Positions 13,431 through 52,227 of a stretch of 64,000 nt of DNA are shown here, piece by piece. This stretch comes from an uncultured Bacteroidota bacterium. Lineage in GTDB: Bacteria > Bacteroidota > Bacteroidia > Bacteroidales > WCHB1-69. The stretch's first letter is position 1. Every line of letters begins with the position of its first letter. Location of the stretch: contig CADADB010000002.1 of the NCBI GenBank assembly GCA_902786595.1, forward strand, positions 158,011 through 222,010, read 5' to 3'. A program made the translations under genes and the position numbers. The notes beneath the pieces are model-generated. The model searched no databases. It was not told the DNA's origin and worked only from the letters and a program-made list of their open reading frames with translations.

Positions 13431-13476
13431 TTTTTAGATGTTTAATTTGGCGGCAAAAGTACATAAATTACCATTG

Positions 13477-13502
13477 TCGAGACGCAAAATTTTGCGTCTC
13501 GA
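13477..13502. repeat. Palindromic element, A-subtype with variant outer arm (H2)
   Basis: TCGAGACGCAAAATTTTGCGTCTCGA, a perfect 26-nt palindrome. Confidence 0.85.
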
Positions 13503-13523
13503 TGGAAATTCCGCTTTTTTTTT

Positions 13524-13531
13524 TATTTTTG
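13524..13531 (+). promoter_or_regulatory. -7 box TATTTTTG
   Basis: 23 nt upstream of the ATG at 13555. Confidence 0.55.
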
Positions 13532-13554
13532 CCATCGTTATTATGATTACCGAT

Positions 13555-16500
13555 ATGAAAAAGACATTTACTTTCCTAACCATAATGCTACTGTTTGCGG
13601 CGGTTTCGGCGCAGACGGTGAGTGTGACGTTTACGGGGCGCGATATCAATGACTTGTATGTGCCGCTGCAACGGGTGGTTGTCAGTAACCTTACCAAAGG
13701 CTGGCAGGATACGTTGACTTGGCCCAATGATACGGTACTGACGATGACGGACGAGACCGGTGTCGGGGATGTAGAGACGTTTCCTGAAACATCTCTGCGG
13801 TTGTCGCAAAACACCCCCAACCCATTTGACGGCACCACGTTTGCGAACCTGCAGGTGGCAGAACTGGGAGACGTGGTAGTAGAGATCACCGATATCACCG
13901 GACGCATTGTAGGGGTGAATCATTATTCTCCCCTACAGCCAGGCATCCACGGAATCCGTATCACCCTCACTTCGGCAGGCATCTATTTCCTGACAGCGAG
14001 GCAAAACGGGATGACCTCTTCGGTGAAGATGGTGAATCGAACTAACGGTGGCAATAACTCCATTGCCATCAACCCTTCAGTTCTACAACTCAAAAGCAGT
14101 CACAGAGATGGTACAGACAATCCTTTTGAGGCAGGTGACCAAATGGAATATGTGGGCTTTGCCACCCTTGATGGCATGGAGGTCGAAAGCGAGCATATCG
14201 TACAGGTGCAGGAAGTCTCAGAGCTGATTACACTTTCTTTTTCTTCCTCAATGGAAGTCACGGATGCTCAACCCTGCCCTGCCACGCCAACCGTGACGGA
14301 TCACGAGGGCAATGTCTATCAGACGGTTATGATTGGCAATCAGTGTTGGATGCGGGAAAATATGCGTTGTGTGACCTCTCCGAGTACGGGTACCTACCTT
14401 GTGGATACAACCTATAATAGCACCTACACAGGCAAGATGGCAAAAAGATATAGGCATTATGATTCTATAACCGTGGACAGCAGTTTTGGTTTGTTGTACA
14501 ATTGGAATGCCATGATGGACACGTTCAACATAGCATATGGGGAGACCAGTGTGGACGACAGTGCCGACCATGCTTTTTCTGTGAATTACAACGGTTACAG
14601 ACGTGGCATTTGTCCGGCAGGTTGGCATCTCCCTACGGAAGACGAGTGGTGGCAGTTACTGTCTTATGTGATGTCACAACCGGATTACTGGTGTGACAGC
14701 TATTTTGATGATCACATTGCCAAGGCGCTTGCTTCCACAACCTCATGGAGTTATTTCTCTGATGAATGTTCACCAGGACACAACCTGAGCACAAACAATG
14801 CTACGGGGTTCAGTGCAATGCCTGCGGGTACTTTTACGAACAACACTTTCCCTACAGTGTTCCCCACATTTTGCTCTGCCTATTTCTGGACGGCCACACA
14901 ACATTCCAAAAGGAGTGCAAAGTCGCATTTCTTTCCATTCTGTAGTTCGACTGTTGATTGGGTATACAGCAACAAGTGTGATTGTTATTCAGTACGTTGC
15001 ATCCGAGGTGACGACACTTTTTCTGTCATAACGCCGCCCACGGTCACCACCGATTCTGTGATGGTGACACATACCTTGATAACCACGGTTACTTGTGGCG
15101 GTGATGTGGTATCGGATGGCGGTGCGCCGATTCTCACGCGGGGTGTATGCTGGAGTACCTCACCGAACCCTACGGTTGAGGATCCACATACCTTCAATGG
15201 CGATAGCCTTGGTTCGTTCACAAGCAACCTCATAGCTCTTCAGGCCAATACCACCTACTATGTGCGAGCATACGCCACCAATGAAGAAGGGATAGCATAC
15301 GGAAATGAGGTGGTGTTTTCCATGCTACCTACCGATTCCGTTCCCATAGCTGCACCTTGTCCCGGCATTCCTACAGTGACAGATATAGAAGGCAATGTGT
15401 ACAACACGGTTCAGATTGGCGCCCAGTGCTGGATGCGGGAAAATATGAGGGTGACTTATTTTTCGAATGGGTCGGCTGTTTCTCCTAACGGCTATTTTGA
15501 TTACAGTAGTTCAAATATTCCGTTTGTGGAACGCGGTTATTTATACAATTGGAATACGGCCATGCATGGAGCCTCTGCCACCAATGCCAATCCTTCCTGC
15601 GTGCAAGGCGTCTGTCCTATCGGTTGGCACGTGCCGAGTATTGCGGAGTGGACACAGCTCAGGAATTATGTGAGCAGCCAGAATCTGTTCGTTTGTGGAG
15701 ATTACTCGTGGTCTGTTGCCAAGGCATTATCTTCTACGACCGGATGGAATTATTTTTCAGAACTCTGTACTGTTGGCAACAGCCAAAGTACGAATAATGC
15801 TACGGGGTTCAGTGCTGTTCCTGCCGGTTGGTGGAAAGCAGCGTTTGGGCATTTTGACGATCAGGGGATGCATGCCTTTTTTTGCTCTACTACGAAATAT
15901 TATGGTAGTGTATTGAGTTGTCAACTATTTAACTACAGAAATGATGTGTTTTTTTATGATGGCTGCGATGTAGCCGATGGCCTCTCTGTTCGTTGCCTCC
16001 GCGATTCGCTCGGAGGAAGCGGCCATACGGTCTTCCTTCCCACGGTCACTACCGATTCGGTAAGCAATATAACGGATACGTCTGCCACTTGTGGCGGTGT
16101 GGTCACAACGGACGGCGGTGACACGATTATAGCTCGAGGGGTGTGTTGGGGAACATCATCGAACCCGACCATAGCGGGAGCTCATACTTCTGACAGTACG
16201 GGTTTGGGGACGTTCACGAGCAGCATTACAGGGCTCAACGCCGGTACCACGTACTATGTCCGGGCATACGTTACAAATAGTATAGGCACTTCCTATGGAA
16301 TGACGATGGCGTTCACCACAGCGCCTCTTACCCCGAATAACCAGCCTTGTCCCGATGCCCCTGTGGTGTTTGATTTTGAAGGTAATTCCTACAATACCAT
16401 ACAAATTGGTAACCAATGTTGGATGCGGGAAAACTTACGTTCCACGTACTATTCGGATGGTGAACCTATCCCTGCCGGGAACAGCAATATGAGCAGTACC

Positions 16501-17007
16501 AATCCTTACTATTATGACAATGGGATTTCAACACCATTGGAGGATCGAGGCTATCTGTATAACTGGCCTGCTGTGATGTACGGTGCATTATCAACGGAAG
16601 CTAACCCGTCCGGGGTGCAGGGAATCTGTCCCGACGGGTGGCACTTGCCAAGCAATGCAGAGTGGACACAGTTGATCAACTACTTAGGTACAGTCTCCGA
16701 TTATTGTTGTGGAGGCAATAGCAATTATATCGCTAAGGCAATGGCCTCACAGAGCGGTTGGCAGTCTACCTTTGATTACTGTACCCCTGGCAACAACCAA
16801 CTCGTGAACAATCTTTCAGGTTTTAGCGCTGTTCCTGTAAGTAATTACCTTGGAACACCAGGCTTTAACGCCGTCTTCTGGAGTTTTTCAGCAGGATCAA
16901 CCAGCTACTATGCCAAGGATTTTCAAATATACTGTTCTGCATCGAATGTGATTCAGGGTTCGTGTCCTACAGATTGGGGACTGTCTGTCCGCTGCCTCCG
17001 CGACTAA
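13555..17007 (+). CDS. Secreted multidomain protein with an N-terminal T9SS-CTD-like module and three FISUMP (Fibrobacter succinogenes major paralogous) domains
   Basis: Signal peptide MKKTFTFLTIMLLFAAVSAQ at the ATG 13555; the tracked ORF begins at 13438. Three repeats of CP..PTV.D.EGN.Y.T..IG.QCWM.EN...GYLYNW..A...CP.GWH.PS..EW..L...ATGFSA.PAG...SVRC.RD. Two Ig-like spacer domains. Confidence 0.85.
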   Translation: MKKTFTFLTIMLLFAAVSAQTVSVTFTGRDINDLYVPLQRVVVSNLTKGWQDTLTWPNDTVLTMTDETGVGDVETFPETSLRLSQNTPNPFDGTTFANLQVAELGDVVVEITDITGRIVGVNHYSPLQPGIHGIRITLTSAGIYFLTARQNGMTSSVKMVNRTNGGNNSIAINPSVLQLKSSHRDGTDNPFEAGDQMEYVGFATLDGMEVESEHIVQVQEVSELITLSFSSSMEVTDAQPCPATPTVTDHEGNVYQTVMIGNQCWMRENMRCVTSPSTGTYLVDTTYNSTYTGKMAKRYRHYDSITVDSSFGLLYNWNAMMDTFNIAYGETSVDDSADHAFSVNYNGYRRGICPAGWHLPTEDEWWQLLSYVMSQPDYWCDSYFDDHIAKALASTTSWSYFSDECSPGHNLSTNNATGFSAMPAGTFTNNTFPTVFPTFCSAYFWTATQHSKRSAKSHFFPFCSSTVDWVYSNKCDCYSVRCIRGDDTFSVITPPTVTTDSVMVTHTLITTVTCGGDVVSDGGAPILTRGVCWSTSPNPTVEDPHTFNGDSLGSFTSNLIALQANTTYYVRAYATNEEGIAYGNEVVFSMLPTDSVPIAAPCPGIPTVTDIEGNVYNTVQIGAQCWMRENMRVTYFSNGSAVSPNGYFDYSSSNIPFVERGYLYNWNTAMHGASATNANPSCVQGVCPIGWHVPSIAEWTQLRNYVSSQNLFVCGDYSWSVAKALSSTTGWNYFSELCTVGNSQSTNNATGFSAVPAGWWKAAFGHFDDQGMHAFFCSTTKYYGSVLSCQLFNYRNDVFFYDGCDVADGLSVRCLRDSLGGSGHTVFLPTVTTDSVSNITDTSATCGGVVTTDGGDTIIARGVCWGTSSNPTIAGAHTSDSTGLGTFTSSITGLNAGTTYYVRAYVTNSIGTSYGMTMAFTTAPLTPNNQPCPDAPVVFDFEGNSYNTIQIGNQCWMRENLRSTYYSDGEPIPAGNSNMSSTNPYYYDNGISTPLEDRGYLYNWPAVMYGALSTEANPSGVQGICPDGWHLPSNAEWTQLINYLGTVSDYCCGGNSNYIAKAMASQSGWQSTFDYCTPGNNQLVNNLSGFSAVPVSNYLGTPGFNAVFWSFSAGSTSYYAKDFQIYCSASNVIQGSCPTDWGLSVRCLRD
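13771..13798. repeat. Decayed GTAGAGACG element inside a CDS (H3)
   Basis: GTAGAGACGTTTCCTGAAACATCTCTGC, read in frame as VETFPETSL. Confidence 0.8.
13909..13936. repeat. GTAGGGG-type palindrome inside a CDS
   Basis: GTAGGGGTGAATCATTATTCTCCCCTAC, 12 of 14 positions paired. Read in frame as VGVNHYSPL. Confidence 0.8.
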
Positions 17008-24479: not shown

Positions 24480-26315
24480 TTACGATTCTTCCGAGAAATT
24501 GTCAATCTCCTCCCTCAGGTTCTCCATGATGAAGTTCTGTCGTTGCGGCGTGTTCTTGCCCATGTAGTACTCGATGACTGCGTCGATGTTGCTCTTCGCG
24601 TCGAGGACCACCGGCTCCAGGCGGATGTTCTTGCCGATGAAACCCTTGAACTCCGGCGGGGAAATCTCACCCAGACCTTTGAATCGGGTGATTTCTGGCT
24701 TCTTCCCTAACGACTTGATAGCTTGCAATTTTTCTTCCTCGGAGTAGCAATAGACGGTTTTCTGCTTGTTGCGCACGCGGAAGAGCGGCGTTTGCAGGAC
24801 ATAAACATGCCCCGAGCGGACTACGTCGGGGAAGTATTTCAGGAAGAAGGCCATCAGCAGCAGCCGGATGTGCATGCCATCGACATCGGCATCGGTGGCG
24901 ATGATGATGTTGTTGTAGCGCAGCCCATCGACGCCGTCCTCGATGTTGAGGGCGGCCTGTAGCAGACTCAGCTCCTCGTTGGAGTAGATGGCGCTCTTCG
25001 ACTTGATGATGTTCGCCGGCTTGCCCTTCAAGCTGAAGACCGCCTGCGTGTTCGCGTCGCGCGACTGCGTGATGGAACCGGATGCCGAGTCGCCCTCGGT
25101 GATGAAAATCATCGTCTCCAACCCGCGTGAGTCGTTGGTGTTGAAATGGTACTTGCAATCGCGCAGCTTCTTGTTGTGCAGACTCACCTTCTTCTGGATT
25201 TCTTTGGTCTGCTTCTTCAGATTGGAGATGGCAATACGCTCTTTTTCAGCTTCTTGTATCTTTTTCAGAATCACATCGGCTACATCGGGATGCTTGTGCA
25301 GGTAGTTGTCTAACAAGCGGCCGATCATGTCGTTCACATAGTTGCGGATGGTCTGCCCGCCGGGTTCAATATGCTCGGAGCCCAACTTGGTTTTGGTCTG
25401 GGAGTCGAAGATGGGGTCTTTGACCTTGATGGACATGTTGGCGACGACGGAATTGCGGACATCCGCAGGCTCGAAGTTCTTCTTGAAGAAGTCGCGGAAA
25501 GTTTTGACGATGGCCTCGCGCATGGCCTGTTGGTGGGTGCCGCCGTGCTCCGTGTACTGGCTGTTGACGAATGTGTAGTACTCCTCGCCGTATTTTCGGT
25601 TAGTGTGGACCATGGCGAACTCGAAGTTGTCGTCTTTCAGGTAGATGGGCTCATACAGGGCGTTGTCGCCCACTTTTTTGTTGAGCAAATCCAAGAGGCC
25701 GTTTTTGGAGTAGAAGCGTTTGCCGTTGAAGTTGATGGTCAGGCCGCGGTTCAGATAGACGTAGTTCCAGAGCAGATTCTCGATGTATTCGGTGTACCAT
25801 TCGTAATTCTCGAAGATGGTGTTGTCGGGGAGGAAGGAGGCCATCGTGCCGTTCTTCTCGTCGGTGGCCTCGATGGGATACTCCTTGGTCAGCAGGCCGG
25901 CGGAGAACTCGGCTCTTTTCATCTGGCCGTCGCGCACGCTTTGCACGAGCAGGTGCGTGGAGAGCGCGTTCACCGCCTTCACGCCCACACCGTTCATGCC
26001 GATGGATGCGAAATCGCCCTTGAAGTTGCGGCCCGTGTTCATCTTGGAGTAGCAATCGACCACCTTGTTCAAGGGGATGCCGCGGCCGTAGTCGCGCACG
26101 GTCACGCGGTTTTCCTTGATGGTGATGTCGATGACCTTGCCGTAGCCGTTCATGAACTCGTCGATGGCGTTGTCCATCACCTCCTTCAGGAGCACGTAGA
26201 TGCCGTCGTCGTGCGACGAGCCGTCGCCCTTCTTGCCGATGTACATGCCGGGTCTCGTCCGGATGTGCTCGTACCAATTCAGGGTTATAATGTTATCATC
26301 TTGATAATCTGCCAT
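24480..26315 (-). CDS. parE: Type IIA topoisomerase subunit B (topoisomerase IV ParE-like)
   Basis: 611 aa. GHKL ATPase N-terminus (RPGMYIG, EVMDNAIDE), TOPRIM EGDSASGS and ATDADVDGMHIR. Confidence 0.93.
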   Translation of the reverse strand: MADYQDDNIITLNWYEHIRTRPGMYIGKKGDGSSHDDGIYVLLKEVMDNAIDEFMNGYGKVIDITIKENRVTVRDYGRGIPLNKVVDCYSKMNTGRNFKGDFASIGMNGVGVKAVNALSTHLLVQSVRDGQMKRAEFSAGLLTKEYPIEATDEKNGTMASFLPDNTIFENYEWYTEYIENLLWNYVYLNRGLTINFNGKRFYSKNGLLDLLNKKVGDNALYEPIYLKDDNFEFAMVHTNRKYGEEYYTFVNSQYTEHGGTHQQAMREAIVKTFRDFFKKNFEPADVRNSVVANMSIKVKDPIFDSQTKTKLGSEHIEPGGQTIRNYVNDMIGRLLDNYLHKHPDVADVILKKIQEAEKERIAISNLKKQTKEIQKKVSLHNKKLRDCKYHFNTNDSRGLETMIFITEGDSASGSITQSRDANTQAVFSLKGKPANIIKSKSAIYSNEELSLLQAALNIEDGVDGLRYNNIIIATDADVDGMHIRLLLMAFFLKYFPDVVRSGHVYVLQTPLFRVRNKQKTVYCYSEEEKLQAIKSLGKKPEITRFKGLGEISPPEFKGFIGKNIRLEPVVLDAKSNIDAVIEYYMGKNTPQRQNFIMENLREEIDNFSEES

Positions 26316-26353
26316 ATCACTGTCTTACAATTGTCAAATCAGGTTTTTCGGTC

Positions 26354-26383
26354 TGTAGAGACGTTTCCTGAAACGTCTCTACA
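26354..26383. repeat. GTAGAGACG palindromic element, T-subtype (H4)
   Basis: TGTAGAGACGTTTCCTGAAACGTCTCTACA, between the sigma-gene stop and the parE start. Confidence 0.9.
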
Positions 26384-26450
26384 ACGACGTTTCAGGCGCG
26401 TCCATACAAAGGTTACATAATGGTTTTGCCGCATTCTTGAAAATGCGGCG

Positions 26451-26458
26451 CAAAAGTA
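26451..26458 (-). promoter_or_regulatory. -7 box TACTTTTG (minus strand), parE
   Basis: CAAAAGTA on the plus strand. Confidence 0.5.
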
Positions 26459-26488
26459 CAAAAAATTCGGTTGCTCGCGGCGTGACAA

Positions 26489-27637
26489 TCACTGCTCACC
26501 GATAACCTGATACACCGTGTCCGACACGATGGTGGTGTCGCGGATCACGACGGTCCGGCGGACGGGCACCTTTTGGGTGATGATGACGGGGTCGGGATTC
26601 GTTGTTTCTTCCGTTTTCGCTAATGCGGCGGGTGGTGTCCCGACAACGCTGGCGGGTGACGTTTCGGCGTCGGTCCGTAGGGGCGAATAATTATTCGCCC
26701 CTACAACGGAATTTGTTCCTACAACGGATTTCGTCCCTACAACAGAATCTGTCGCCACAACGCGTTCCGTCAATGTATTCGTGTTAGGAGATGCAACCGT
26801 ATCAGGAGACATTGCGCGCACCGTCTCTACCATCGGGGACGGATTATTGGCCGGGTTTGGGGCGACGGGGTGGTGACGGCCCGCCTGCCAACCGACGGCG
26901 CCGCCCGTGATGCCCGCAGCCGTGACGAGGAGGAGGGTGGCCTTGTGCGCCGCGATAGCGGTGACGAATTTGCCCGGGGAGGTGGCCGCCGTTTGGACGA
27001 TTCCGGCGGCGGAATCCATTCGCAATCCCGACAATTTGGAACGGTACAACCGGTCCAACCGGCGGGAATCGGCGTTGGTTCGTTTCAGGATAAAAAGCAG
27101 GGGTATCATAAGCAATCCTTTCCTCTTGTTCTCTTTTTGTTTGTATTTGTCTGTGAGCATTTGGCCCAGACGCACGCGGGCCCGGTGGTGCAACTGCTTG
27201 GAGTAGGCCACCGAGATGTCGAGCAGTCCCGCGATGCGCCGGTGCGAGTATCCTTCGATGGCGTAGAGGTTGAAGACCGTCCGTTGCTGTTCCGGCAGCT
27301 GCTGGACGGTTTCCAACAGCTCCTTCTCTGTGAAGTCGGCGGTCCAAATCGGTTCGGTGTCTTCGTCTGGGCGTTCGGCGGCGGGTTCCGACTCCAAGGC
27401 GATGAAATCGGGCTTTTGTCGCAGGTAGTCGATGCAGTGGTTCACGGCGATGCGGGTCAGCCAGGCATCGAAGCGGCCGAAGGCGCGGTAGGCCTTGAAG
27501 GTTTCCATTGCCTTCAGGAACACGTCCTGCGCCAGATCCTGCGCCACCGTCCAGTCGTTGACATAGCGGTAGCAGATCCCGACAATCCTGCCGTGCCCCC
27601 TCCGGTACTGCTTCTCCCAAAATTTCGCCTTGTCCAT
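26489..27637 (-). CDS. ECF-type sigma-70 factor fused to a transmembrane segment and a low-complexity extracytoplasmic tail
   Basis: Probable start MDKAKFW at 27637. Region 2: DLAQDVFLKAMETF...DAWLTRIAVNHCIDYLRQ. Region 4: LPEQQRTVFNLYAIEGYSHRRIAGLLDISVAYSKQLHHRAR. About 200 further residues follow with one hydrophobic helix (ATLLLVTAAGITGGAVGW). Confidence 0.8.
   Translation of the reverse strand: MDKAKFWEKQYRRGHGRIVGICYRYVNDWTVAQDLAQDVFLKAMETFKAYRAFGRFDAWLTRIAVNHCIDYLRQKPDFIALESEPAAERPDEDTEPIWTADFTEKELLETVQQLPEQQRTVFNLYAIEGYSHRRIAGLLDISVAYSKQLHHRARVRLGQMLTDKYKQKENKRKGLLMIPLLFILKRTNADSRRLDRLYRSKLSGLRMDSAAGIVQTAATSPGKFVTAIAAHKATLLLVTAAGITGGAVGWQAGRHHPVAPNPANNPSPMVETVRAMSPDTVASPNTNTLTERVVATDSVVGTKSVVGTNSVVGANNYSPLRTDAETSPASVVGTPPAALAKTEETTNPDPVIITQKVPVRRTVVIRDTTIVSDTVYQVIGEQ
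26677..26704. repeat. GTAGGGG-type perfect palindrome inside the sigma-tail CDS
   Basis: GTAGGGGCGAATAATTATTCGCCCCTAC, 14 of 14 paired. Encodes VGANNYSPL. Confidence 0.9.
26701..26772. repeat. Four tandem 18-bp units inside the sigma-tail CDS
   Basis: ctacaacggaatttgttc / ctacaacggatttcgtcc / ctacaacagaatctgtcg / ccacaacgcgttccgtca. Encodes a (T/D)xSVVG hexapeptide repeat. Confidence 0.85.
26803..26830. repeat. Decayed GTAGAGACG element inside the sigma-tail CDS
   Basis: caGGAGACattgcgcgcacCGTCTCTAC. The right arm is intact and the left arm is decayed. Encodes VETVRAMSP. Confidence 0.6.
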
Positions 27638-27666
27638 TCGATACTGTTGCCGACTGCCTGCCCACC

Positions 27667-27734
27667 ACTCACTAATCACTGATCACTAATCACTAATATC
27701 ATAACGTGAAAAAGTGAAAAGGTGACAGCCGGGG
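27667..27734 (-). promoter_or_regulatory. Conserved leader element, copy A (upstream of the sigma gene; lacks the -7 box)
   Basis: Minus-strand reading: CCCCGGCTGTCACCTTTTCACTTTTTCACGTTATGATATTAGTGATTAGTGATCAGTGATTAGTGAG. Confidence 0.75.
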
Positions 27735-27763
27735 TGATATTTTTTGCGGTGAAATTACAAAAA

Positions 27764-28453
27764 TCAGAATTTCAAACGGTACCCCACATTCAAGATTCCT
27801 TGCGTGCCGTACCCCAATTCGATGTTCCCGTTGTTACGCTTGCCGAGGGAGACACCGAGCAGTGTGAGATGTCCGGAAGGAAAAATCACCAAATCGCCTT
27901 TCCAGTGTTCGTCCATAAAATACAAAGTAAACCCTAAAGAACAACCTGAATATAAGGTACAAACAGGGTATCTTTTAAAAGTGATTCGATAGGAAGTTTG
28001 CAATGCCCAAAACGCATTCAACGAATTATAGGGCTGATTCTCTCGTTTTAGAGTCTTAATCAACGGAGAATAGGGCTCTTGATAAGGGTTGTCGGTGGGC
28101 AGCGTGGTGATATGGCGGAATGCCAATGTGGATTGTATCCCGACGGCGTGAAACCGGGTCATGTTGTAGTAATAATTAAACGTGAAAGACCCTATCAGCC
28201 AGCTGTCTATGGTATCTCCTATATCCGTCTTGTAGTGTTCGTGATGGCTGAACCACTTTTCGTCGCTACGTGCACGATCCCACATTCCAATCACAGGATA
28301 AATTCCCATCGAAAAACCAATCTCATGTTTAGGCACATCAGACAACCCATCTGATGTGTTTTGTGCAGTACAAGTGACGGATACAAACAGAAACATGCAC
28401 AAAAACAAGAGTGAATACATTCCTAACAGGTCTTTTTTCATAATATGCAGCAT
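27764..28453 (-). CDS. Small outer-membrane beta-barrel-like protein (paralog of the 28454..29302 C-terminal domain)
   Basis: Signal peptide. Shares KHEI..S.G..P.IG and NIELG.GTQG.L..GY..KF with the upstream gene and has a C-terminal Phe. Its ATG abuts the upstream stop; Met5 at 28441 is an alternative start. Confidence 0.7.
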   Translation of the reverse strand: MLHIMKKDLLGMYSLLFLCMFLFVSVTCTAQNTSDGLSDVPKHEIGFSMGIYPVIGMWDRARSDEKWFSHHEHYKTDIGDTIDSWLIGSFTFNYYYNMTRFHAVGIQSTLAFRHITTLPTDNPYQEPYSPLIKTLKRENQPYNSLNAFWALQTSYRITFKRYPVCTLYSGCSLGFTLYFMDEHWKGDLVIFPSGHLTLLGVSLGKRNNGNIELGYGTQGILNVGYRLKF

Positions 28454-29302
28454 TTAGAATTTGTAACTGTAACCGATCTTCAACATCCCTTGTGTCCCTA
28501 ACCCAAGTTCTATGTTGGCAGCATTATGATTGCCTATACGTATTCCAAGATAATTGATGTTGAAATCGAAACGCCAATCGTGGCAGTTTTTTAATGGGTA
28601 AACGTTGGGGACTTCTGGCAAATGATTGATGCCATCCTCATAATAGGCTGCATCACCGATAAGATATAATGTGGCTCCAAAAGAAACCGAAGAATACAGG
28701 GATATTTTTTCTGTGTTAAAAAAATGTATGCTGTAGCCTGCTTGGAAACAGAGGTAGTGAACATAATCGTTTCTGTATGCCCAATGTCTCACATATATAG
28801 TCGGTGCCGTATGCTTCATCGCCGCCCAAGTAAGGTTGAAGTCCACACTGTGCAACTTGTTGAAATAAAGGTGGTATTGTAGATTGACACCTCCGAAGAA
28901 GAGCTCTTTTAAAGAACTATAGTCTTCAAAAGACACATTTTCAAAACTCCCTCGGTAAAAAGTGCCGATATAAGGGGCTAAACCGTACGAGACCTCGATC
29001 TCATGCTTGAGATCCAGACCGTTTTGACGTGCATGGTGGACAGGGCTTTGGCGGTACTCGTCCATGGCCAGCGCGACAGTGTCGTGCACTCGGAGCGTGT
29101 CGTGCACGAAGAGGGTGTCATAGACAGGCTCTTCCTCCACCACGTACAGGGTGTCGCGGTGCTGGGCGGAGAGGGGAGAGGCGAGGGCGAGGAGGACGAC
29201 GAGGGACAGACACGCACGTATTGCGCTGCGCGCATACTGTGCTACCGAGCTCTTGTCCCTCCGGGACTGCTTAAGGAAGTAGTTTCTTATATACATAGCC
29301 AT
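28454..29302 (-). CDS. Beta-barrel-like protein with a shared N-terminal module (MAMYIRN...QHRDTLYVVEEEPVYDTLFVHDTLRVHDT)
   Basis: 282 aa. Long signal/anchor region and a C-terminus ending GYSYKF. Confidence 0.7.
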   Translation of the reverse strand: MAMYIRNYFLKQSRRDKSSVAQYARSAIRACLSLVVLLALASPLSAQHRDTLYVVEEEPVYDTLFVHDTLRVHDTVALAMDEYRQSPVHHARQNGLDLKHEIEVSYGLAPYIGTFYRGSFENVSFEDYSSLKELFFGGVNLQYHLYFNKLHSVDFNLTWAAMKHTAPTIYVRHWAYRNDYVHYLCFQAGYSIHFFNTEKISLYSSVSFGATLYLIGDAAYYEDGINHLPEVPNVYPLKNCHDWRFDFNINYLGIRIGNHNAANIELGLGTQGMLKIGYSYKF

Positions 29303-29317
29303 ATCGGTTTAGCGCTA

Positions 29318-29393
29318 TTCACTGCTCACTGTTCACTGTTCACTAATATCATAACGTGAAAAAGCGAAAAGGTGACAGTCGGGGGCAAAAATA
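29318..29393 (-). promoter_or_regulatory. Conserved promoter plus leader element, copy B
   Basis: -7 box TATTTTTG (plus-strand 29386-29393), then CCCCCGACTGTCACCTTTTCGCTTTTTCACGTTATGATATTAGTGAACAGTGAACAGTGAGCAGTGAA on the minus strand. Confidence 0.75.
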
Positions 29394-29398
29394 AAATC

Positions 29399-30259
29399 TT
29401 ATTTAATCATACAGAATCTGACGGCGAAATTCAGCGAAATGTCATATCCGTGATAAGGATATTCCGTCGGCATACCCGTATAGCAAATCAACCATAACGG
29501 ATTGTTGTCCAAACTGGTACGTGGCGGTTTGGCATTTGCCGATTTCAGAAGGGAACAATAACCTGCCCTGAGGTCTATTTGAAAAGAGAGTTTAGGTTTT
29601 TTCAAGACAAACTCCACCCCAAACAAAGGATATACCCCAAGTTTCCAAAGCGTTGGTCGGAGTATTGAAACGCCTCCCGACAAGCCAGCTCCGACCATAT
29701 AATAGTAAAGCACCCCGTTTTTCTCAGCAATTTGACGTTGATATAAAAAGTTTTGAGAAAGTTCATATACGTACAGTATAAAACTATTCTCCGGAGAATA
29801 GTTGTTAATGAAAAATCTGCCTGAAAAATCGGTTTGGAAAACACAATTCTTGGAAATGCCGTATTTGATGGAAGGCCCGCCTCCGAGCACGTTAACATTC
29901 AAACCTGCACTAAACTTGTAAAATCCAGTACTATCCGTCTGCATCGGGACCAACGTGTCGTGCACTCGGAGCGTGTCGTGCACGAAGAGGGTGTCATAGA
30001 CCGGCTCTTCCTCCACCACATACAGGGTGTCGCGGTGCTGGGCGAAGAGGGGAGAGGCGAGGGCGAGGAGGACGACGATGACGAGGGACAGACACACACG
30101 TATTGCGCTGCGCGTACCGGTATCGCTGTCTCCGCAGTCCGAACCTGTCTCCAGCATCAAGCCCCACACTGCGCTGCGCTTGTGTGGGGTTAATTGCGCT
30201 TCGCGCGTGTTGCCTCTCCGAGGCTGCTTAAGGAAGTGGTTTCTAATATACATAGCCAT
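29399..30259 (-). CDS. Small beta-rich envelope protein carrying the same N-terminal module but a different C-terminal domain
   Basis: 286 aa. The N-terminal ~75 aa are near-identical to 28454..29302 apart from a ~25-aa insertion. The C-terminal domain is unrelated and ends RFCMIK. Confidence 0.65.
   Translation of the reverse strand: MAMYIRNHFLKQPRRGNTREAQLTPHKRSAVWGLMLETGSDCGDSDTGTRSAIRVCLSLVIVVLLALASPLFAQHRDTLYVVEEEPVYDTLFVHDTLRVHDTLVPMQTDSTGFYKFSAGLNVNVLGGGPSIKYGISKNCVFQTDFSGRFFINNYSPENSFILYVYELSQNFLYQRQIAEKNGVLYYYMVGAGLSGGVSILRPTLWKLGVYPLFGVEFVLKKPKLSFQIDLRAGYCSLLKSANAKPPRTSLDNNPLWLICYTGMPTEYPYHGYDISLNFAVRFCMIK
30162..30189. repeat. Hairpin inside the paralog-specific insertion
   Basis: CCCCACAC-tgcgctgcgctt-GTGTGGGG. 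Encodes TPHKRSAVWG in the n-region. Confidence 0.7.
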
Positions 30260-30267
30260 ATCGGTTT

Positions 30268-30350
30268 ATCACTGATCACTATTCACTATTTACTGCTCAC
30301 TATATTCATAACGTGAAAAAGTGAAAAGGTGACAGCCGGGGGCAAAAATA
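30268..30350 (-). promoter_or_regulatory. Conserved promoter plus leader element, copy C
   Basis: -7 box TATTTTTG (30343-30350), then CCCCCGGCTGTCACCTTTTCACTTTTTCACGTTATGAATATAGTGAGCAGTAAATAGTGAATAGTGATCAGTGAT. Confidence 0.75.
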
Positions 30351-30465
30351 CAAAAAAATGTTACAACTCATTCTTCCACAGCGCATCTTATTTCTCTAAA
30401 TTCATCAGACAATGGTTGTTTTTAGATAAATAAAACATCTTATCCGTCTGAAAAAGAAAAAAATA

Positions 30466-31948: not shown

Positions 31949-32023
31949 GTCACTGTTCACTGCTCACTGTTCACTATATTCGTAACGTGAAAAAGTGAAA
32001 AGGTGACAGTCGGGGCAAAAATA
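31949..32023 (-). promoter_or_regulatory. Conserved promoter plus leader element, copy D (orphan)
   Basis: -7 box TATTTTTG (32016-32023), then CCCCGACTGTCACCTTTTCACTTTTTCACGTTACGAATATAGTGAACAGTGAGCAGTGAACAGTGAC. No cognate gene follows. It points into the 3' end of the ATPase gene. Confidence 0.7.
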
Positions 32024-32063
32024 AAAAAAATCGGACAAACAATATTGCATTCGAAAAATATTG

Positions 32064-35459: not shown

Positions 35460-35489
35460 TGTAGAGACGCGCCATGGCACGTCTCTACA
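35460..35489. repeat. GTAGAGACG palindromic element, C-subtype (H5)
   Basis: TGTAGAGACGCGCCATGGCACGTCTCTACA. Confidence 0.9.
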
Positions 35490-35535
35490 TCGCCCTGTTA
35501 CCGTTTCACCGCAAACGCCGTAAATGAAATAAATG

Positions 35536-35543
35536 TATCTTTG
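35536..35543 (+). promoter_or_regulatory. -7 box TATCTTTG
   Basis: Upstream of the ATG at 35613. Confidence 0.5.
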
Positions 35544-35612
35544 CGGTCGTTTACCTAATTGTGGCCCTTTTATGTTTTTTTGCGTCTTAATAAAAAGTGA
35601 ACGTTATTTATT

Positions 35613-36887
35613 ATGAATATGAAAAATATACGACTGACAACCATTTTTCTTACACTTTTACTGTCATATGGACACGTTTGTATGTCCCAGCAGTTAGACA
35701 AGCATATTTTGAAGACTCAGCGGGATATTGACTTGTTTTTTGAAAAATATGATGAGATTTATGATGTGTATCATGACTTTTACAAAGATAAACAGTTCGA
35801 TAAGGCGATTCTCCATCTAAAAGAACTTGTCACATTCTTTGACACAACTGCTATTGACAGTCAGTGGGTGGATGCTAGGATCTACAAGGAAGAAATGACA
35901 GCCGATGTATATTATAATCTTGCATGCTGCTACGCATTGACGGCACAAAAGAAACTGGCATTGGAAACACTGGAAAAATCCATACGCGTAGGTTACAAGG
36001 ATTATCGTAATATGCTTAACGACAGCGATTTTGAGAGTATCAGAGAAGACAAGAAATTCAAATCCTTACTTGAAGAGATTAAGCAATATGACCGATTGAC
36101 GATTTTGCAAAATTCGTCTGCCTATATCAAAGATGACAACGATTCGCTGCCGCAATTTGTTTATCAGGATTCTGGAGACTATCGTTTGTTGAATGTCAGA
36201 AAGTTTTTTGATCTGGACTCCGTTGCCGGTGACGGTGATGAGATTTCCAAGATCCTGAATATCCTTCATTTCGTTCATAAAGTTATCCGGCACGATGGGG
36301 GCAATTTTGCGCTGTGTGAATTTGATGCTATCGATATCTACAATTATCACAAATCAACAGGAAAAGGTGTCAATTGCCGTCATCTGGCCATTGCTTTGAA
36401 TGAGATGTATCTTTCGATGGGCATACCGTCGCGATATGTGACCTGTATGCCATACGACGAGAAAGATCAGGATTGCCACGTCATCAATTCGGTTTGGTCG
36501 TCACAATATCAGAAATGGATTTGGATAGACCCCACTTTCGAAGCATACGTGAAAGACGAAAATGGTAATTTCTTGAGCATCCTGGAAGTGCGGGAGAGAC
36601 TAATTGACGGTCGGCCTCTTTTCTTGAACGAGGATGCCAACTGGAATTATGAGAACAAGCAGACAAAAGAGTATTATCTGGAGGGCTATATGGCCAAAAA
36701 CCTATATTGGTTTGATTGCGTGACAAATTATTGTTTTAATCCGGAGAGCAGATATAGGTATGTGAAGAATAAGCACGTGGTTTTAACACCGTCAACATAC
36801 AAAACGCCATCAACATACGAAAATTCCAGCGATTGGGCCGTTATCACCCACGATGCCGATTATTTTTGGCAAACTCCGACAAAATAA
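35613..36887 (+). CDS. Secreted TPR plus transglutaminase-like cysteine peptidase-fold protein
   Basis: Signal peptide and an N-terminal TPR-like helix region. Candidate triad context: GVNCRHLA (Cys), DCHVINSVW (His), WIWIDPT (Asp). Confidence 0.7.
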   Translation: MNMKNIRLTTIFLTLLLSYGHVCMSQQLDKHILKTQRDIDLFFEKYDEIYDVYHDFYKDKQFDKAILHLKELVTFFDTTAIDSQWVDARIYKEEMTADVYYNLACCYALTAQKKLALETLEKSIRVGYKDYRNMLNDSDFESIREDKKFKSLLEEIKQYDRLTILQNSSAYIKDDNDSLPQFVYQDSGDYRLLNVRKFFDLDSVAGDGDEISKILNILHFVHKVIRHDGGNFALCEFDAIDIYNYHKSTGKGVNCRHLAIALNEMYLSMGIPSRYVTCMPYDEKDQDCHVINSVWSSQYQKWIWIDPTFEAYVKDENGNFLSILEVRERLIDGRPLFLNEDANWNYENKQTKEYYLEGYMAKNLYWFDCVTNYCFNPESRYRYVKNKHVVLTPSTYKTPSTYENSSDWAVITHDADYFWQTPTK

Positions 36888-36902
36888 ACGATATGTAACG
36901 GT

Positions 36903-36930
36903 GTGGGGGCGAGGATAATCATTCTCCCTA
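36903..36930. repeat. Possible degenerate GTAGGGG-type element
   Basis: GTGGGGGCGAGGATAATCATTCTCCCTA. Resembles the copies at 13909 and 26677, with indels. Confidence 0.4.
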
Positions 36931-36956
36931 AAATGCAATTATACCATTTTCGATCC

Positions 36957-36984
36957 GTAGAGACGCGCCATGGCACGTCTCTAC
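36957..36984. repeat. GTAGAGACG palindromic element, C-subtype (H6)
   Basis: GTAGAGACGCGCCATGGCACGTCTCTAC. The core is identical to H5. Confidence 0.9.
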
Positions 36985-51463: not shown

Positions 51464-52227
51464 AACTTGCCCTGTTCGTATTCTTCCTTAATCCAGTCGT
51501 AACCGCGCTCTTCCAGTTCGAGGGCCAGTTCCTTCGGACCCGATTTCACGATTTTGCCATCGAAAAGGACGTGCACCACATCGGGGACGATGTAGTCCAG
51601 CAGCCGCTGGTAGTGGGTGATGACGATGATGGCCTTGTCTGCACCGCGAAGGTGGTTGATACCGTTGGCGACCACGCGGAGCGCGTCAATGTCGAGGCCG
51701 GAGTCGGTTTCGTCGAGGATGGCGAGGTAAGGGTCGAGGAGCGCCATCTGGAAGATTTCGTTGCGCTTTTTCTCGCCGCCGGAGAAGCCCTCGTTCACGG
51801 AGCGGTTGCTGAGCTTGTCAGTCAGTTCCACCACTTTCTGCTTCTCGGCCATCAGTTTGAGGAACTGGGCGCCGTTGAGCGGGTCGAGGCCGCGGTATTT
51901 GCGCACTTCGTTGAGGGCGGTGCGCATGAAATTGGCGATGCTCACGCCGGGGATCTCCACCGGGTATTGGAAACCGATGAAGACGCCTTCGCGGGCGCGG
52001 TCCTCAATGGACAAATCCAGCAGGTTTTTGCCTTTGAACCAGACATTTCCCTGTGTCACCTCATAGCCGCTCTTGCCGGCAATGGCGGATGCCAACGTAC
52101 TTTTTCCGGTGCCGTTCGGACCCATAATGGCGTGCACTTCCCCCGCGTTCACCTCCAAATTGACGCCTTTCAATATCTCTCTATCCTTGATGGATACGTG
52201 TAAATCTTCAATCTTAAGCATATTCAA
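51460..52227 (-). CDS. sufC: Fe-S cluster assembly ATPase SufC
   Basis: Walker A GPNGTGKST, FSGGEKKRNEI, Walker B AILDETDSGLD. Confidence 0.95.
   Translation of the reverse strand: MNMLKIEDLHVSIKDREILKGVNLEVNAGEVHAIMGPNGTGKSTLASAIAGKSGYEVTQGNVWFKGKNLLDLSIEDRAREGVFIGFQYPVEIPGVSIANFMRTALNEVRKYRGLDPLNGAQFLKLMAEKQKVVELTDKLSNRSVNEGFSGGEKKRNEIFQMALLDPYLAILDETDSGLDIDALRVVANGINHLRGADKAIIVITHYQRLLDYIVPDVVHVLFDGKIVKSGPKELALELEERGYDWIKEEYEQGKL

Follow-up and report, generated by a model that had tools for sequence, protein, structure and literature searches.

Dispersed palindromes in the reading frame of a sigma/anti-sigma-like fusion gene from a rumen Bacteroidales genome

Introduction

Rickettsia palindromic elements (RPEs) were reportedly described by Ogata et al. 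in 2000. RPE-1 elements are about 100–150 bp long and restricted to Rickettsia, and we know of no RPE-derived coding tandem array whose copy number varies between strains. Both RPEs and intragenic, in-frame repetitive extragenic palindromes (REPs) have been documented (Di Nocera, De Gregorio & Rocco, 2013; PMC3733652). In that survey GTAG repeats were recorded in Proteobacteria, Cyanobacteria, Chloroflexi and the Planctomycetes–Verrucomicrobia–Chlamydiae (PVC) group, whereas from Bacteroidetes it recorded CGTC repeats alone; in Xanthomonas recB, different REPs occupied about the same site in orthologues (PMC3733652). Bacteroidetes also encode TnpA_REP subclasses 2.4 and 2.6, with atypical REPs (PMC6006769). 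Among extracytoplasmic function (ECF) sigma factors, ECF263 has a C-terminal extension with membrane helices (Casas-Pastor et al., 2021; PMC7826278), and ECF52 is another family of ECF sigma factors with a fused C-terminal regulatory extension (PMC5826349). The present work concerns a stretch of 64 000 nt ('the window') of contig CADADB010000002.1 (assembly GCA_902786595.1, positions 158 011–222 010) from an uncultured Bacteroidota bacterium, in which an ECF sigma factor gene (26489–27637, minus strand) contains two 28-nt palindromes and an 18-nt tandem array. We consider it likely that this segment is selfish repeat DNA translated within the disordered linker of a sigma/anti-sigma-like fusion, with tandem slippage.

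Results

Palindromes and tandem array in the sigma factor gene

The gene and its repeat features are as follows.

26489..27637, minus strand: whole gene, 382 aa, ECF sigma factor in fusion with a single-pass membrane module of anti-sigma-like type (open reading frame list, homologues)
26677..26704: REP-like palindrome of 28 nt, intact (REP B; arms GGGGCG, centre AATAATTATT), encoding VGANNYSPLR (aa 312–321)
26705..26762: in-frame 18-nt tandem array encoding VV(G/A)T(D/K/N)S, coding-strand unit TCCGTT + GTAGGRRCRAAW
26803..26830: decayed REP-like palindrome (REP A), translated VETVRAMSPD (aa 270–279)

Both palindromes and the array share one reading frame on the minus strand, as a preliminary description of this DNA had stated. 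The perfect palindrome that it placed at 26677–26704 was confirmed: GTAGGGGCGAATAATTATTCGCCCCTAC is complementary at 14 of 14 positions, with a predicted RNA hairpin of −20.4 kcal/mol. The REP B sequence is the same in two of the loci compared with the window (designated by L numbers), namely L081 and L001, the latter from the uncultured rumen Bacteroidales genome RUG083, to which the window is ~95–96 % identical over aligned blocks. The 28-mer also recurs base for base in unrelated contexts (L006:8679 and L011:7928), and at L166:12307 a variant with one mismatch is found in the space separating two called genes. REP A is indeed the decayed element that had been reported at 26803–26830, with 9/9 positions kept in one arm and 5/9 in the other, and 9/14 palindromic positions overall. 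In L081 the orthologous element has decayed less (10/14). L001, L081 and L082 all carry an element at this site, and several deeper homologues have a VET... element at roughly this position, past the membrane helix.

The preliminary description had recognized four tandem 18-mers at 26701–26772. Tandem Repeats Finder gave a period of 18 with 3.6 copies at 26699–26762 and 76 % matches; the array, which encodes VVATDS, VVGTKS and VVGTNS, comprises three clear units and one that overlaps the palindrome, but the supposed fourth unit (26755–26772) is only ~56 % identical to the first by hand count. On the coding strand the unit reads TCCGTT and then GTAGG(G/A)(A/G)C(G/A)AA(A/T); its 6 leading bases come from the left flank, and the 12 that follow correspond to the start of the intact palindrome GTAGGGGCGAAT. 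The 18-mers, which had been taken for dispersed-repeat elements, are accordingly local tandem duplications of this flank and palindrome arm rather than separately inserted copies. Nor did the idea hold that each is itself a small palindrome (ACGGATTTCGT): a 1-nt loop would be needed, and minimum-energy folding gave the units no general hairpin.

Comparison among strains, which had been proposed as a check, revealed variation in repeat number. DNA alignment of the window with L001 identified exactly one extra unit in the window, TCCGTTGTAGGAACAAAT, and alleles with 1, 2, 3 and 4 units were found among strains at least 90 % identical (L001, L081, L082 and the 15 members listed of a 172-member cluster). 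The array thus has the properties of a coding variable-number tandem repeat (VNTR): its units are head-to-tail, each is a multiple of 3 nt long, and closely related strains differ in how many they have.

The dispersed palindrome family

The pattern GTAGRGRCG-N10-CGYCYCTAC was present in nine copies in the window, compared with 0.00 expected from 100 shuffles. Eight of the nine perfect copies lie outside or at the edges of long open reading frames (ORFs), the exception being the in-gene copy. Each element consists of GTAGRGRCG and CGYCYCTAC on either side of a 10-nt centre, which is a palindrome in its own right or close to one, with 12–14 of the 14 positions of the 28-nt unit paired in the nine perfect-arm window copies. 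The copy nearest to the sigma gene is:

26355..26382: intergenic copy of the palindrome family, 107 nt downstream of the sigma gene stop (pattern search)

Related rumen loci provided 33 distinct perfect-arm copies, in which the following centre subfamilies recurred.

Centre CGCCATGGCA: 7 copies of the 33
Centre AATAATTATT: 6 copies of the 33
Centre TTTCAGGAAA: 4 copies of the 33
Centre CAAAATTTTG: 4 copies of the 33
Centre TTTCATGAAA: 3 copies of the 33
Centre CAATGCATTG: 3 copies of the 33

Among the perfect-arm copies seen, GGGGCG arms were always combined with the AATAATTATT centre. All elements start with GTAG, which pairs with the 3' CTAC, so that the tag is on both strands and inside the stem; only a weak Y-T preference before GTAG lies outside it. 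Of 66 flanks, 46 have T at position −1 and 56 have C/T at −2, a bias mirrored on the other side. This looser flank preference is what stands of an earlier statement that CTACAACGG flanks intergenic copies, since the exact sequence recurs at only one other copy (50046) and the copy at 26355 has CTACAACGA. A further CTACAACGG match, at 20–28, falls inside the first tRNA gene and has no connection with the repeats. When the window was searched with Rfam at gathering thresholds, the palindromes gave no match and the only hits were two tRNAs:

19–90 and 1387–1457: two tRNA genes (Rfam RF00005)

In L165 and L166, for which called genes were available, 5 of 11 elements were intergenic and the remaining six were in one gene family. 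These data support the palindromes of the sigma gene as genuine members of the genome's dispersed repeat family, and the elements appear to act in the manner of GTAG-type REPs. Of the three frames in which an element can be read, two are free of the TAG stop, and for this reason an element can persist in coding DNA.

Architecture of the sigma factor

The remaining features of the gene are listed from the N terminus of the protein.

27113..27637, minus strand: sigma-70 region 2 and region 4, aa 1–175 (Pfam, NCBIfam, AlphaFold2)
27032..27067, minus strand: conserved cytoplasmic helix RRLDRLYRSKLS, aa 191–202, start of the anti-sigma-like module (family alignment, model)
26897..26965, minus strand: predicted transmembrane helix VTAIAAHKATLLLVTAAGITGGA, aa 225–247 (hydropathy, model, conservation)
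26594..26878, minus strand: variable low-complexity linker rich in V, T, P, A, N and S, aa 254–348 (model, composition, dN/dS)
26492..26593, minus strand: conserved C-terminal motif DPVIITQKVPVRRTVVIRDTTIVSDTVY..., aa 349–382, 34 aa (family alignment, dN/dS)

The likely true start is the ATG at 27637 (homologues all begin MDKxKFWE). The GTG at 27679 in the ORF-list version (26489–27679, 396 aa) is probably a spurious start, and the GTG extension runs into an 81-nt repeat also found before other genes. Residues 1–175 matched Sigma70_r2 (5.7e-17) and Sigma70_r4_2 (1.3e-13) in Pfam, and the NCBIfam sigma70-ECF model scored 80 bits (cut-off 42.9). As expected of a fused ECF sigma factor, only sigma-70 regions 2 and 4 are present, followed by an extension of >50 aa; this extension is ~200 aa long and without a Pfam domain. 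The predicted products of a tryptic digest would include SVVGTNSVVGANNYSPLR and, from the C terminus, TVVIR and DTTIVSDTVYQVIGEQ.

The D, Y, R and L positions of the helix at aa 191–202 are near-invariant in the family, D and T positions of the C-terminal motif are invariant, and the linker between membrane helix and motif aligns poorly among homologues. In an AlphaFold2 model built with the family alignment, the predicted local distance difference test score (pLDDT) was ~90 for the sigma domains and ~88 for the helix at aa 191–202, and below 50 for residues 225–396 of the 396-aa ORF (~211–382 in the 382-aa numbering), including the whole linker. The segment aa 225–247 is the top Kyte–Doolittle 19-residue window of the protein (1.58), is helical in the model and is conserved in the family; it is the sole credible membrane helix. 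A short hydrophobic stretch directly after the sigma domain and before the helix at aa 191–202, LLMIPLLFIL (aa 175–184), was considered as a first membrane helix, which would place the tail in the cytoplasm. This is unlikely, as the stretch has ~10 hydrophobic residues and a Kyte–Doolittle value of 0.4, and its counterpart in the split form described below shrinks to MFLRKII, which speaks against a membrane helix. The tail is therefore most likely extracytoplasmic, as originally proposed, because there is one candidate membrane helix and because the split-form module has an anti-sigma layout (short N terminus, then membrane helix).

The tail had also been described as largely encoded by repeats. 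This was an overestimate: repeats cover 39 of the ~95–100 linker residues, which is ~40 % of the linker and ~30 % of the part after the membrane helix.

Translation of the tail and its relation to a split form

Coding constraint, a check put forward in the preliminary description, was estimated as the ratio of non-synonymous to synonymous substitution (dN/dS) by the method of Nei and Gojobori among four strains 92–96 % identical. The ratio was 0.00–0.14 in the sigma domain, 0.26–0.46 in the linker and 0–0.17 in the last 30 codons, which lie in the C-terminal motif downstream of all repeats. Every strain length difference in the sigma gene is a multiple of 3. With the C-terminal motif past the repeats thus constrained and all indels multiples of 3, the tail is, as judged from the sequence comparison, translated. 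The dispersed palindromes therefore reside in frame inside a functional gene, the frame being kept and the downstream motif being under purifying selection, and the linker is under relaxed rather than positive selection (dN/dS <0.5).

A different reading is that the tail is not part of the protein, being a pseudogene-like run-on or an assembly artefact that joins the sigma gene to non-coding repeats. The preliminary description had named a stop codon before the repeats in homologues as a sign of this, and such a stop occurs only in one clade (L003/4/7/8 and L089/90), whose sigma ORF stops after ~170 aa. In L003, the only member of the clade for which the locus was read through, the helix-plus-membrane module is a separate ORF 4 nt past the sigma stop and in another frame, with the helix at aa 191–202 as its N terminus, so the module is translated either way. 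The clade thus shows that the window protein is a sigma/anti-sigma-like fusion, because L003 encodes the same module as an adjacent separate ORF, and does not show that the tail is untranslated. Moreover, the fused form was seen repeatedly in dozens of independent assemblies and its C-terminal motif is under strong purifying selection. The artefact reading is effectively refuted already, and we allow it next to no probability.

The separate membrane protein of L003 is 433 aa long, with a much larger extracytoplasmic part, and its C terminus resembles the ends of three window genes directly upstream of the sigma gene. These three paralogous genes (229, 282 and 286 aa; 27764–30259, minus strand, like the sigma gene) have no Pfam hit and end in a beta-barrel-like sequence, ...GYGTQG(I/M)L(N/K)(V/I)GY(R/S)(L/Y)KF. 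The 81-nt repeat occurs at 27669–27749, 29319–29399, 30276–30356 and 31950–32030 (74–85 % identical) and holds GTGAAAAAGTGAAAAGGTGACAG as well as runs of the octamer TCACTNNT. On the minus strand its end is 32 nt upstream of the sigma ATG, and it sits ~17 nt upstream of the two outer-membrane protein (OMP)-like genes. It may represent a common promoter or leader, and this sigma factor is a candidate for acting on it.

Elements in homologues of the sigma factor

The whole architecture is common to ~50 database proteins of 330–420 aa, with 40–55 % identity covering ~95 % of the query, and several genomes have more than one paralogue (L161 and L162 are from the same assembly, L002 and L009 from the same metagenome-assembled genome (MAG)). 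At the DNA level, ~30 REP-derived elements were found in 17 sigma-family genes, with three in frame in L002, three or four in L091 and five each in L161 and L163. L083 has two perfect in-frame copies that are identical to intergenic copies in the window. One element of L161/L163, in the sigma2–sigma4 linker (aa ~95), is read in the other open frame as R-D-A-I-S-R-V-S-T (RDAISRVST); it is the only clear in-gene copy found outside the V-E-T frame.

The perfect-arm peptide signature V[EG][TA]xxxx[SP]L[HQPRL] had 42 matches in 24 of 50 sigma-family proteins, compared with 0.2 matches in shuffled sequences over this protein set and that of the second gene (below) together. In the sigma family, 74 % of the central tetrapeptides belong to the set of 926 encodable by a centre of perfect palindromy, whereas 0.58 % would be expected by chance.

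Recognizable elements are missing from some paralogous clades (L006, L010, L011, L084–L087, L012 and L016), whose linkers are similarly long. L006 is from the sheep rumen MAG RGIG6723, a close relative: L006:1–3692 is 94 % identical to window positions 51588–47882, and this block is followed by a sigma-fusion paralogue without a recognizable element that has no counterpart at that position in the window. The preliminary description had suggested that the linker was assembled from dispersed-repeat DNA that stayed open. Family membership and the open frame bear this out in part, but since the element-free paralogues have linkers of similar length, the linker pre-dates the repeats. On this comparison the linker is colonized, not built, by repeats, the elements residing in a pre-existing disordered spacer.

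A second gene family with elements at fixed positions

The same pattern was found in a gene on the plus strand (13558–17007) that encodes a signal peptide and whose homologues have Por_Secre_tail-like and Fib_succ_major domains. It has two in-frame elements.

13771–13798, plus strand: in-frame REP-derived element, VETFPETSLR, gene 13558–17007
13909–13936, plus strand: in-frame REP-derived element, VGVNHYSPLQ, gene 13558–17007

A third lies just upstream of the start of the gene (region 13476–13936). Among 120 homologues (50–73 % identity) both columns almost always have a REP-type peptide, the subfamily varying; the pattern was present in 94 of the 120, and the same column can hold VGANNYSPL or VETFHETSL. 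At the DNA level, L165 and L166 have three in-frame elements per gene and ~35 neighbouring called genes without any. With these two further elements in the window, the in-frame phenomenon is general.

Replacement of elements in place

At the intergenic site 26355 the window has the centre TTTCAGGAAA and L082 (L082:3861) the centre CGCCATGGCA, with 12 identical flanking bases on each side; L001 has a CGCC type with a mutated arm. In the region 26355–26420 the window and L082 carry ~26 extra bases relative to L001:5260–5300, with a partial element core (CCTGAAACGTC). At one coding site of the sigma family (site A), the centre is CAATGCATTG in L005 and TTTCCTGAAA in L083, while L009/L088 have a decayed one that resembles CAAAATTTTG; flanking sequence is ~85–90 % identical among them. 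As all elements are 28 nt, such centre swaps keep the frame. For swapping in place, elements must either re-insert at a preferred target, be converted over short tracts or be selected for their hairpin.

Two identical palindromes (GTAGAGACGCGCCATGGCACGTCTCTAC) bound a 1.47-kb segment of the window at 35461–36984, and L082 has a single palindrome at the junction and lacks the segment, which suggests deletion or insertion through the repeats. The ORF between the identical copies (35613–36887) was considered as a REP-associated tyrosine transposase (RAYT) or REPtron gene and ruled out, its Pfam domains being transglutaminase-like with TPR repeats.

Several observations weigh against reading the segment as tolerated selfish DNA, the explanation preferred here. 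Homologues of no more than 45–70 % identity still have perfect palindromes at matching coding positions, and these switch subfamily in place, which insertion once followed by neutral decay does not account for; some maintaining process is needed. Nearly all in-gene copies are in the V-E-T frame (~10 sites vs one), a marginally significant bias: a binomial estimate gave p ~0.08 if a third were expected in the other open frame and ~0.006 if half were. No RAYT-type transposase was found with a crude HUH...Y regular expression (0 matches in 1.08 Mb of window and loci), which is a weak negative. A clean pair of filled and empty sites was not recovered either, the candidates (L166:12307 vs the window at ~17.8 kb, and L009:3297 vs L005) being too diverged for boundaries, and at the sigma2–sigma4 linker site, compared as another candidate, length differs by 5 aa, not 10. 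Insertion itself, and the size of the inserted unit, we infer: 28 nt is not a multiple of 3, and 30 nt, with a T...A flank, would be. A passive mechanism does not fully explain the persistence and in-place swapping of perfect palindromes over deep divergence, and two other explanations were therefore weighed.

One is that the hairpin itself is kept for a function, either in RNA (ribosome pausing, message protection or an RNase) or in DNA (a protein-binding or recombination site), the peptide being a by-product. Palindromy is kept at fixed coding positions over deep divergence, with 66–74 % of centre peptides palindrome-compatible, and the whole peptide can change at one column while the site stays a REP, as in VGANNYSPL vs VETFHETSL. 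The RNA hairpins are strong (−15.7 to −20.4 kcal/mol) and the region folds better than shuffles (z = −3.75). In the window's own clade, however, REP A is decaying, and pairs of REP B have been lost without compensation in L082 and several cluster members (VGANNYSLL); paralogues without a recognizable element also exist. A role as intrinsic terminators was dropped, as the in-gene elements lack a T-tract and a scan of 26200–27900 detected no terminator-like site. Conservation of the hairpin for function is, on balance, unlikely.

The other explanation is active site-specific swapping, by RAYT excision and re-insertion at a fixed target or by short-tract conversion, with the elements acting as a cassette that diversifies ~10-residue peptides or joins paralogue segments in envelope proteins. 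Different subfamilies do occur at one site (intergenic 26355, site A of the sigma family, and the Fib_succ-family sites of L165 vs L166), and occupancy is gene-specific, three of the five to six elements per 21-kb locus being in one gene and none in ~35 others. The L002 protein also looks by eye like a mosaic of two alleles, P0010-like to about the second element and P0006-like thereafter. Yet the swapping is equally visible at an intergenic site, so the protein need not be the point; the motif search identified no enzyme; the linker is under relaxed, not positive, selection; and similar sites with different REPs have already been noted for Xanthomonas recB (PMC3733652). We regard a cassette of this kind as very unlikely.

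Discussion

The data document that the palindromes belong to a family, that the tail is translated, that unit number is polymorphic, that elements recur in homologues and that subfamilies replace one another at fixed sites. The mechanism most likely at work is a passive one, in which selfish palindromes are tolerated in open frames of disordered segments. An element, presumably moved by a RAYT-type transposase, would persist as a peptide of ~10 residues, V-E-T-xxxx-S-L-Q or V-G-A-NNYS-P-L, if it arrived with an open frame in coding DNA for a tolerant, unstructured segment. Two elements would have settled in the linker of the sigma factor in this way, one since decayed and the other intact, and an 18-nt piece across the 5' edge of the intact element would then have been duplicated in tandem, probably through replication slippage next to the hairpin. 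The outcome would be an in-frame array whose unit number changes between strains, with neutral or near-neutral variation in the length and sequence of the spacer as its probable main phenotypic effect.

A stronger proposal would be that sigma/anti-sigma fusions and Fib_succ/type IX secretion system (T9SS)-domain proteins keep REPs at fixed coding sites, where a site-specific process exchanges the subfamilies. We think this distinctly unlikely; if true, it would constitute a REP-based cassette system that rewrites ~10-residue peptides, or acts as a joint for paralogue shuffling, in exposed protein segments.

Under tolerated insertion, the reading we prefer, the Bacteroidales, a dominant gut and rumen order, are added to the lineages with REP-type selfish DNA translated in working genes. 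V-E-T-xxxx-S-L-Q and V-G-A-NNYS-P-L should be taken as marks of repeat DNA rather than as protein motifs, and they can mislead annotation of domains and repeats. Strains can readily be told apart by the 18-nt array, and the linker that joins membrane helix and C-terminal motif is suggested to be a sequence-tolerant, length-variable spacer.

Full-text literature searches on the arm sequences returned no relevant paper, and searches on intragenic palindromes of Bacteroidales or Prevotella returned the general REP literature only. Two features were undescribed in the papers found: a coding tandem repeat traced directly to a palindrome arm, and palindromes at the same coding positions, with changing subfamily, across >100 homologues.

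The elements resemble the GTAG/CGTC-tagged REPs (PMC3733652) in being short (20–40 bp), dispersed, mostly intergenic palindromes with a GTAG end, a minority of which lie wholly in ORFs, adding ~10–30 residues and sometimes occurring several per gene; different REPs are also sometimes found at about the same site in orthologues. They differ in that the tag of known GTAG REPs is unpaired at one end of the hairpin, whereas here GTAG is in the stem, mirrored by CTAC and without a mark of polarity. The discrete centre subfamilies, palindromic or nearly so, are a further difference, as are the hosts, which are envelope and signalling proteins and not DNA-repair genes.

With the RPEs of Rickettsia they share the property of being selfish palindromes in frame in still-functional genes, typically at tolerant sites, but the element here is 28 nt long and from rumen Bacteroidales, so that it is RPE-like in action and outside the RPE family. 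The array is like the coding VNTRs of bacterial surface and envelope proteins in that the unit is a multiple of 3, close strains differ in copies and the product is a low-complexity extracytoplasmic spacer. Unlike those repeats, its unit is traceable to the arm of a dispersed palindrome plus flank, an origin that points to hairpin-associated slippage, and it cannot switch the gene on or off. As in ECF263 and ECF52, the sigma2–sigma4 core of the protein continues into a C-terminal extension of >50 aa, which takes the place of a free-standing anti-sigma factor; unlike in them, the extension is without a Pfam domain and close relatives encode the module as a separate downstream gene. In-gene translated palindromes are already known from Rickettsia and other bacteria, and the sigma factor gene described here is a clear new example.

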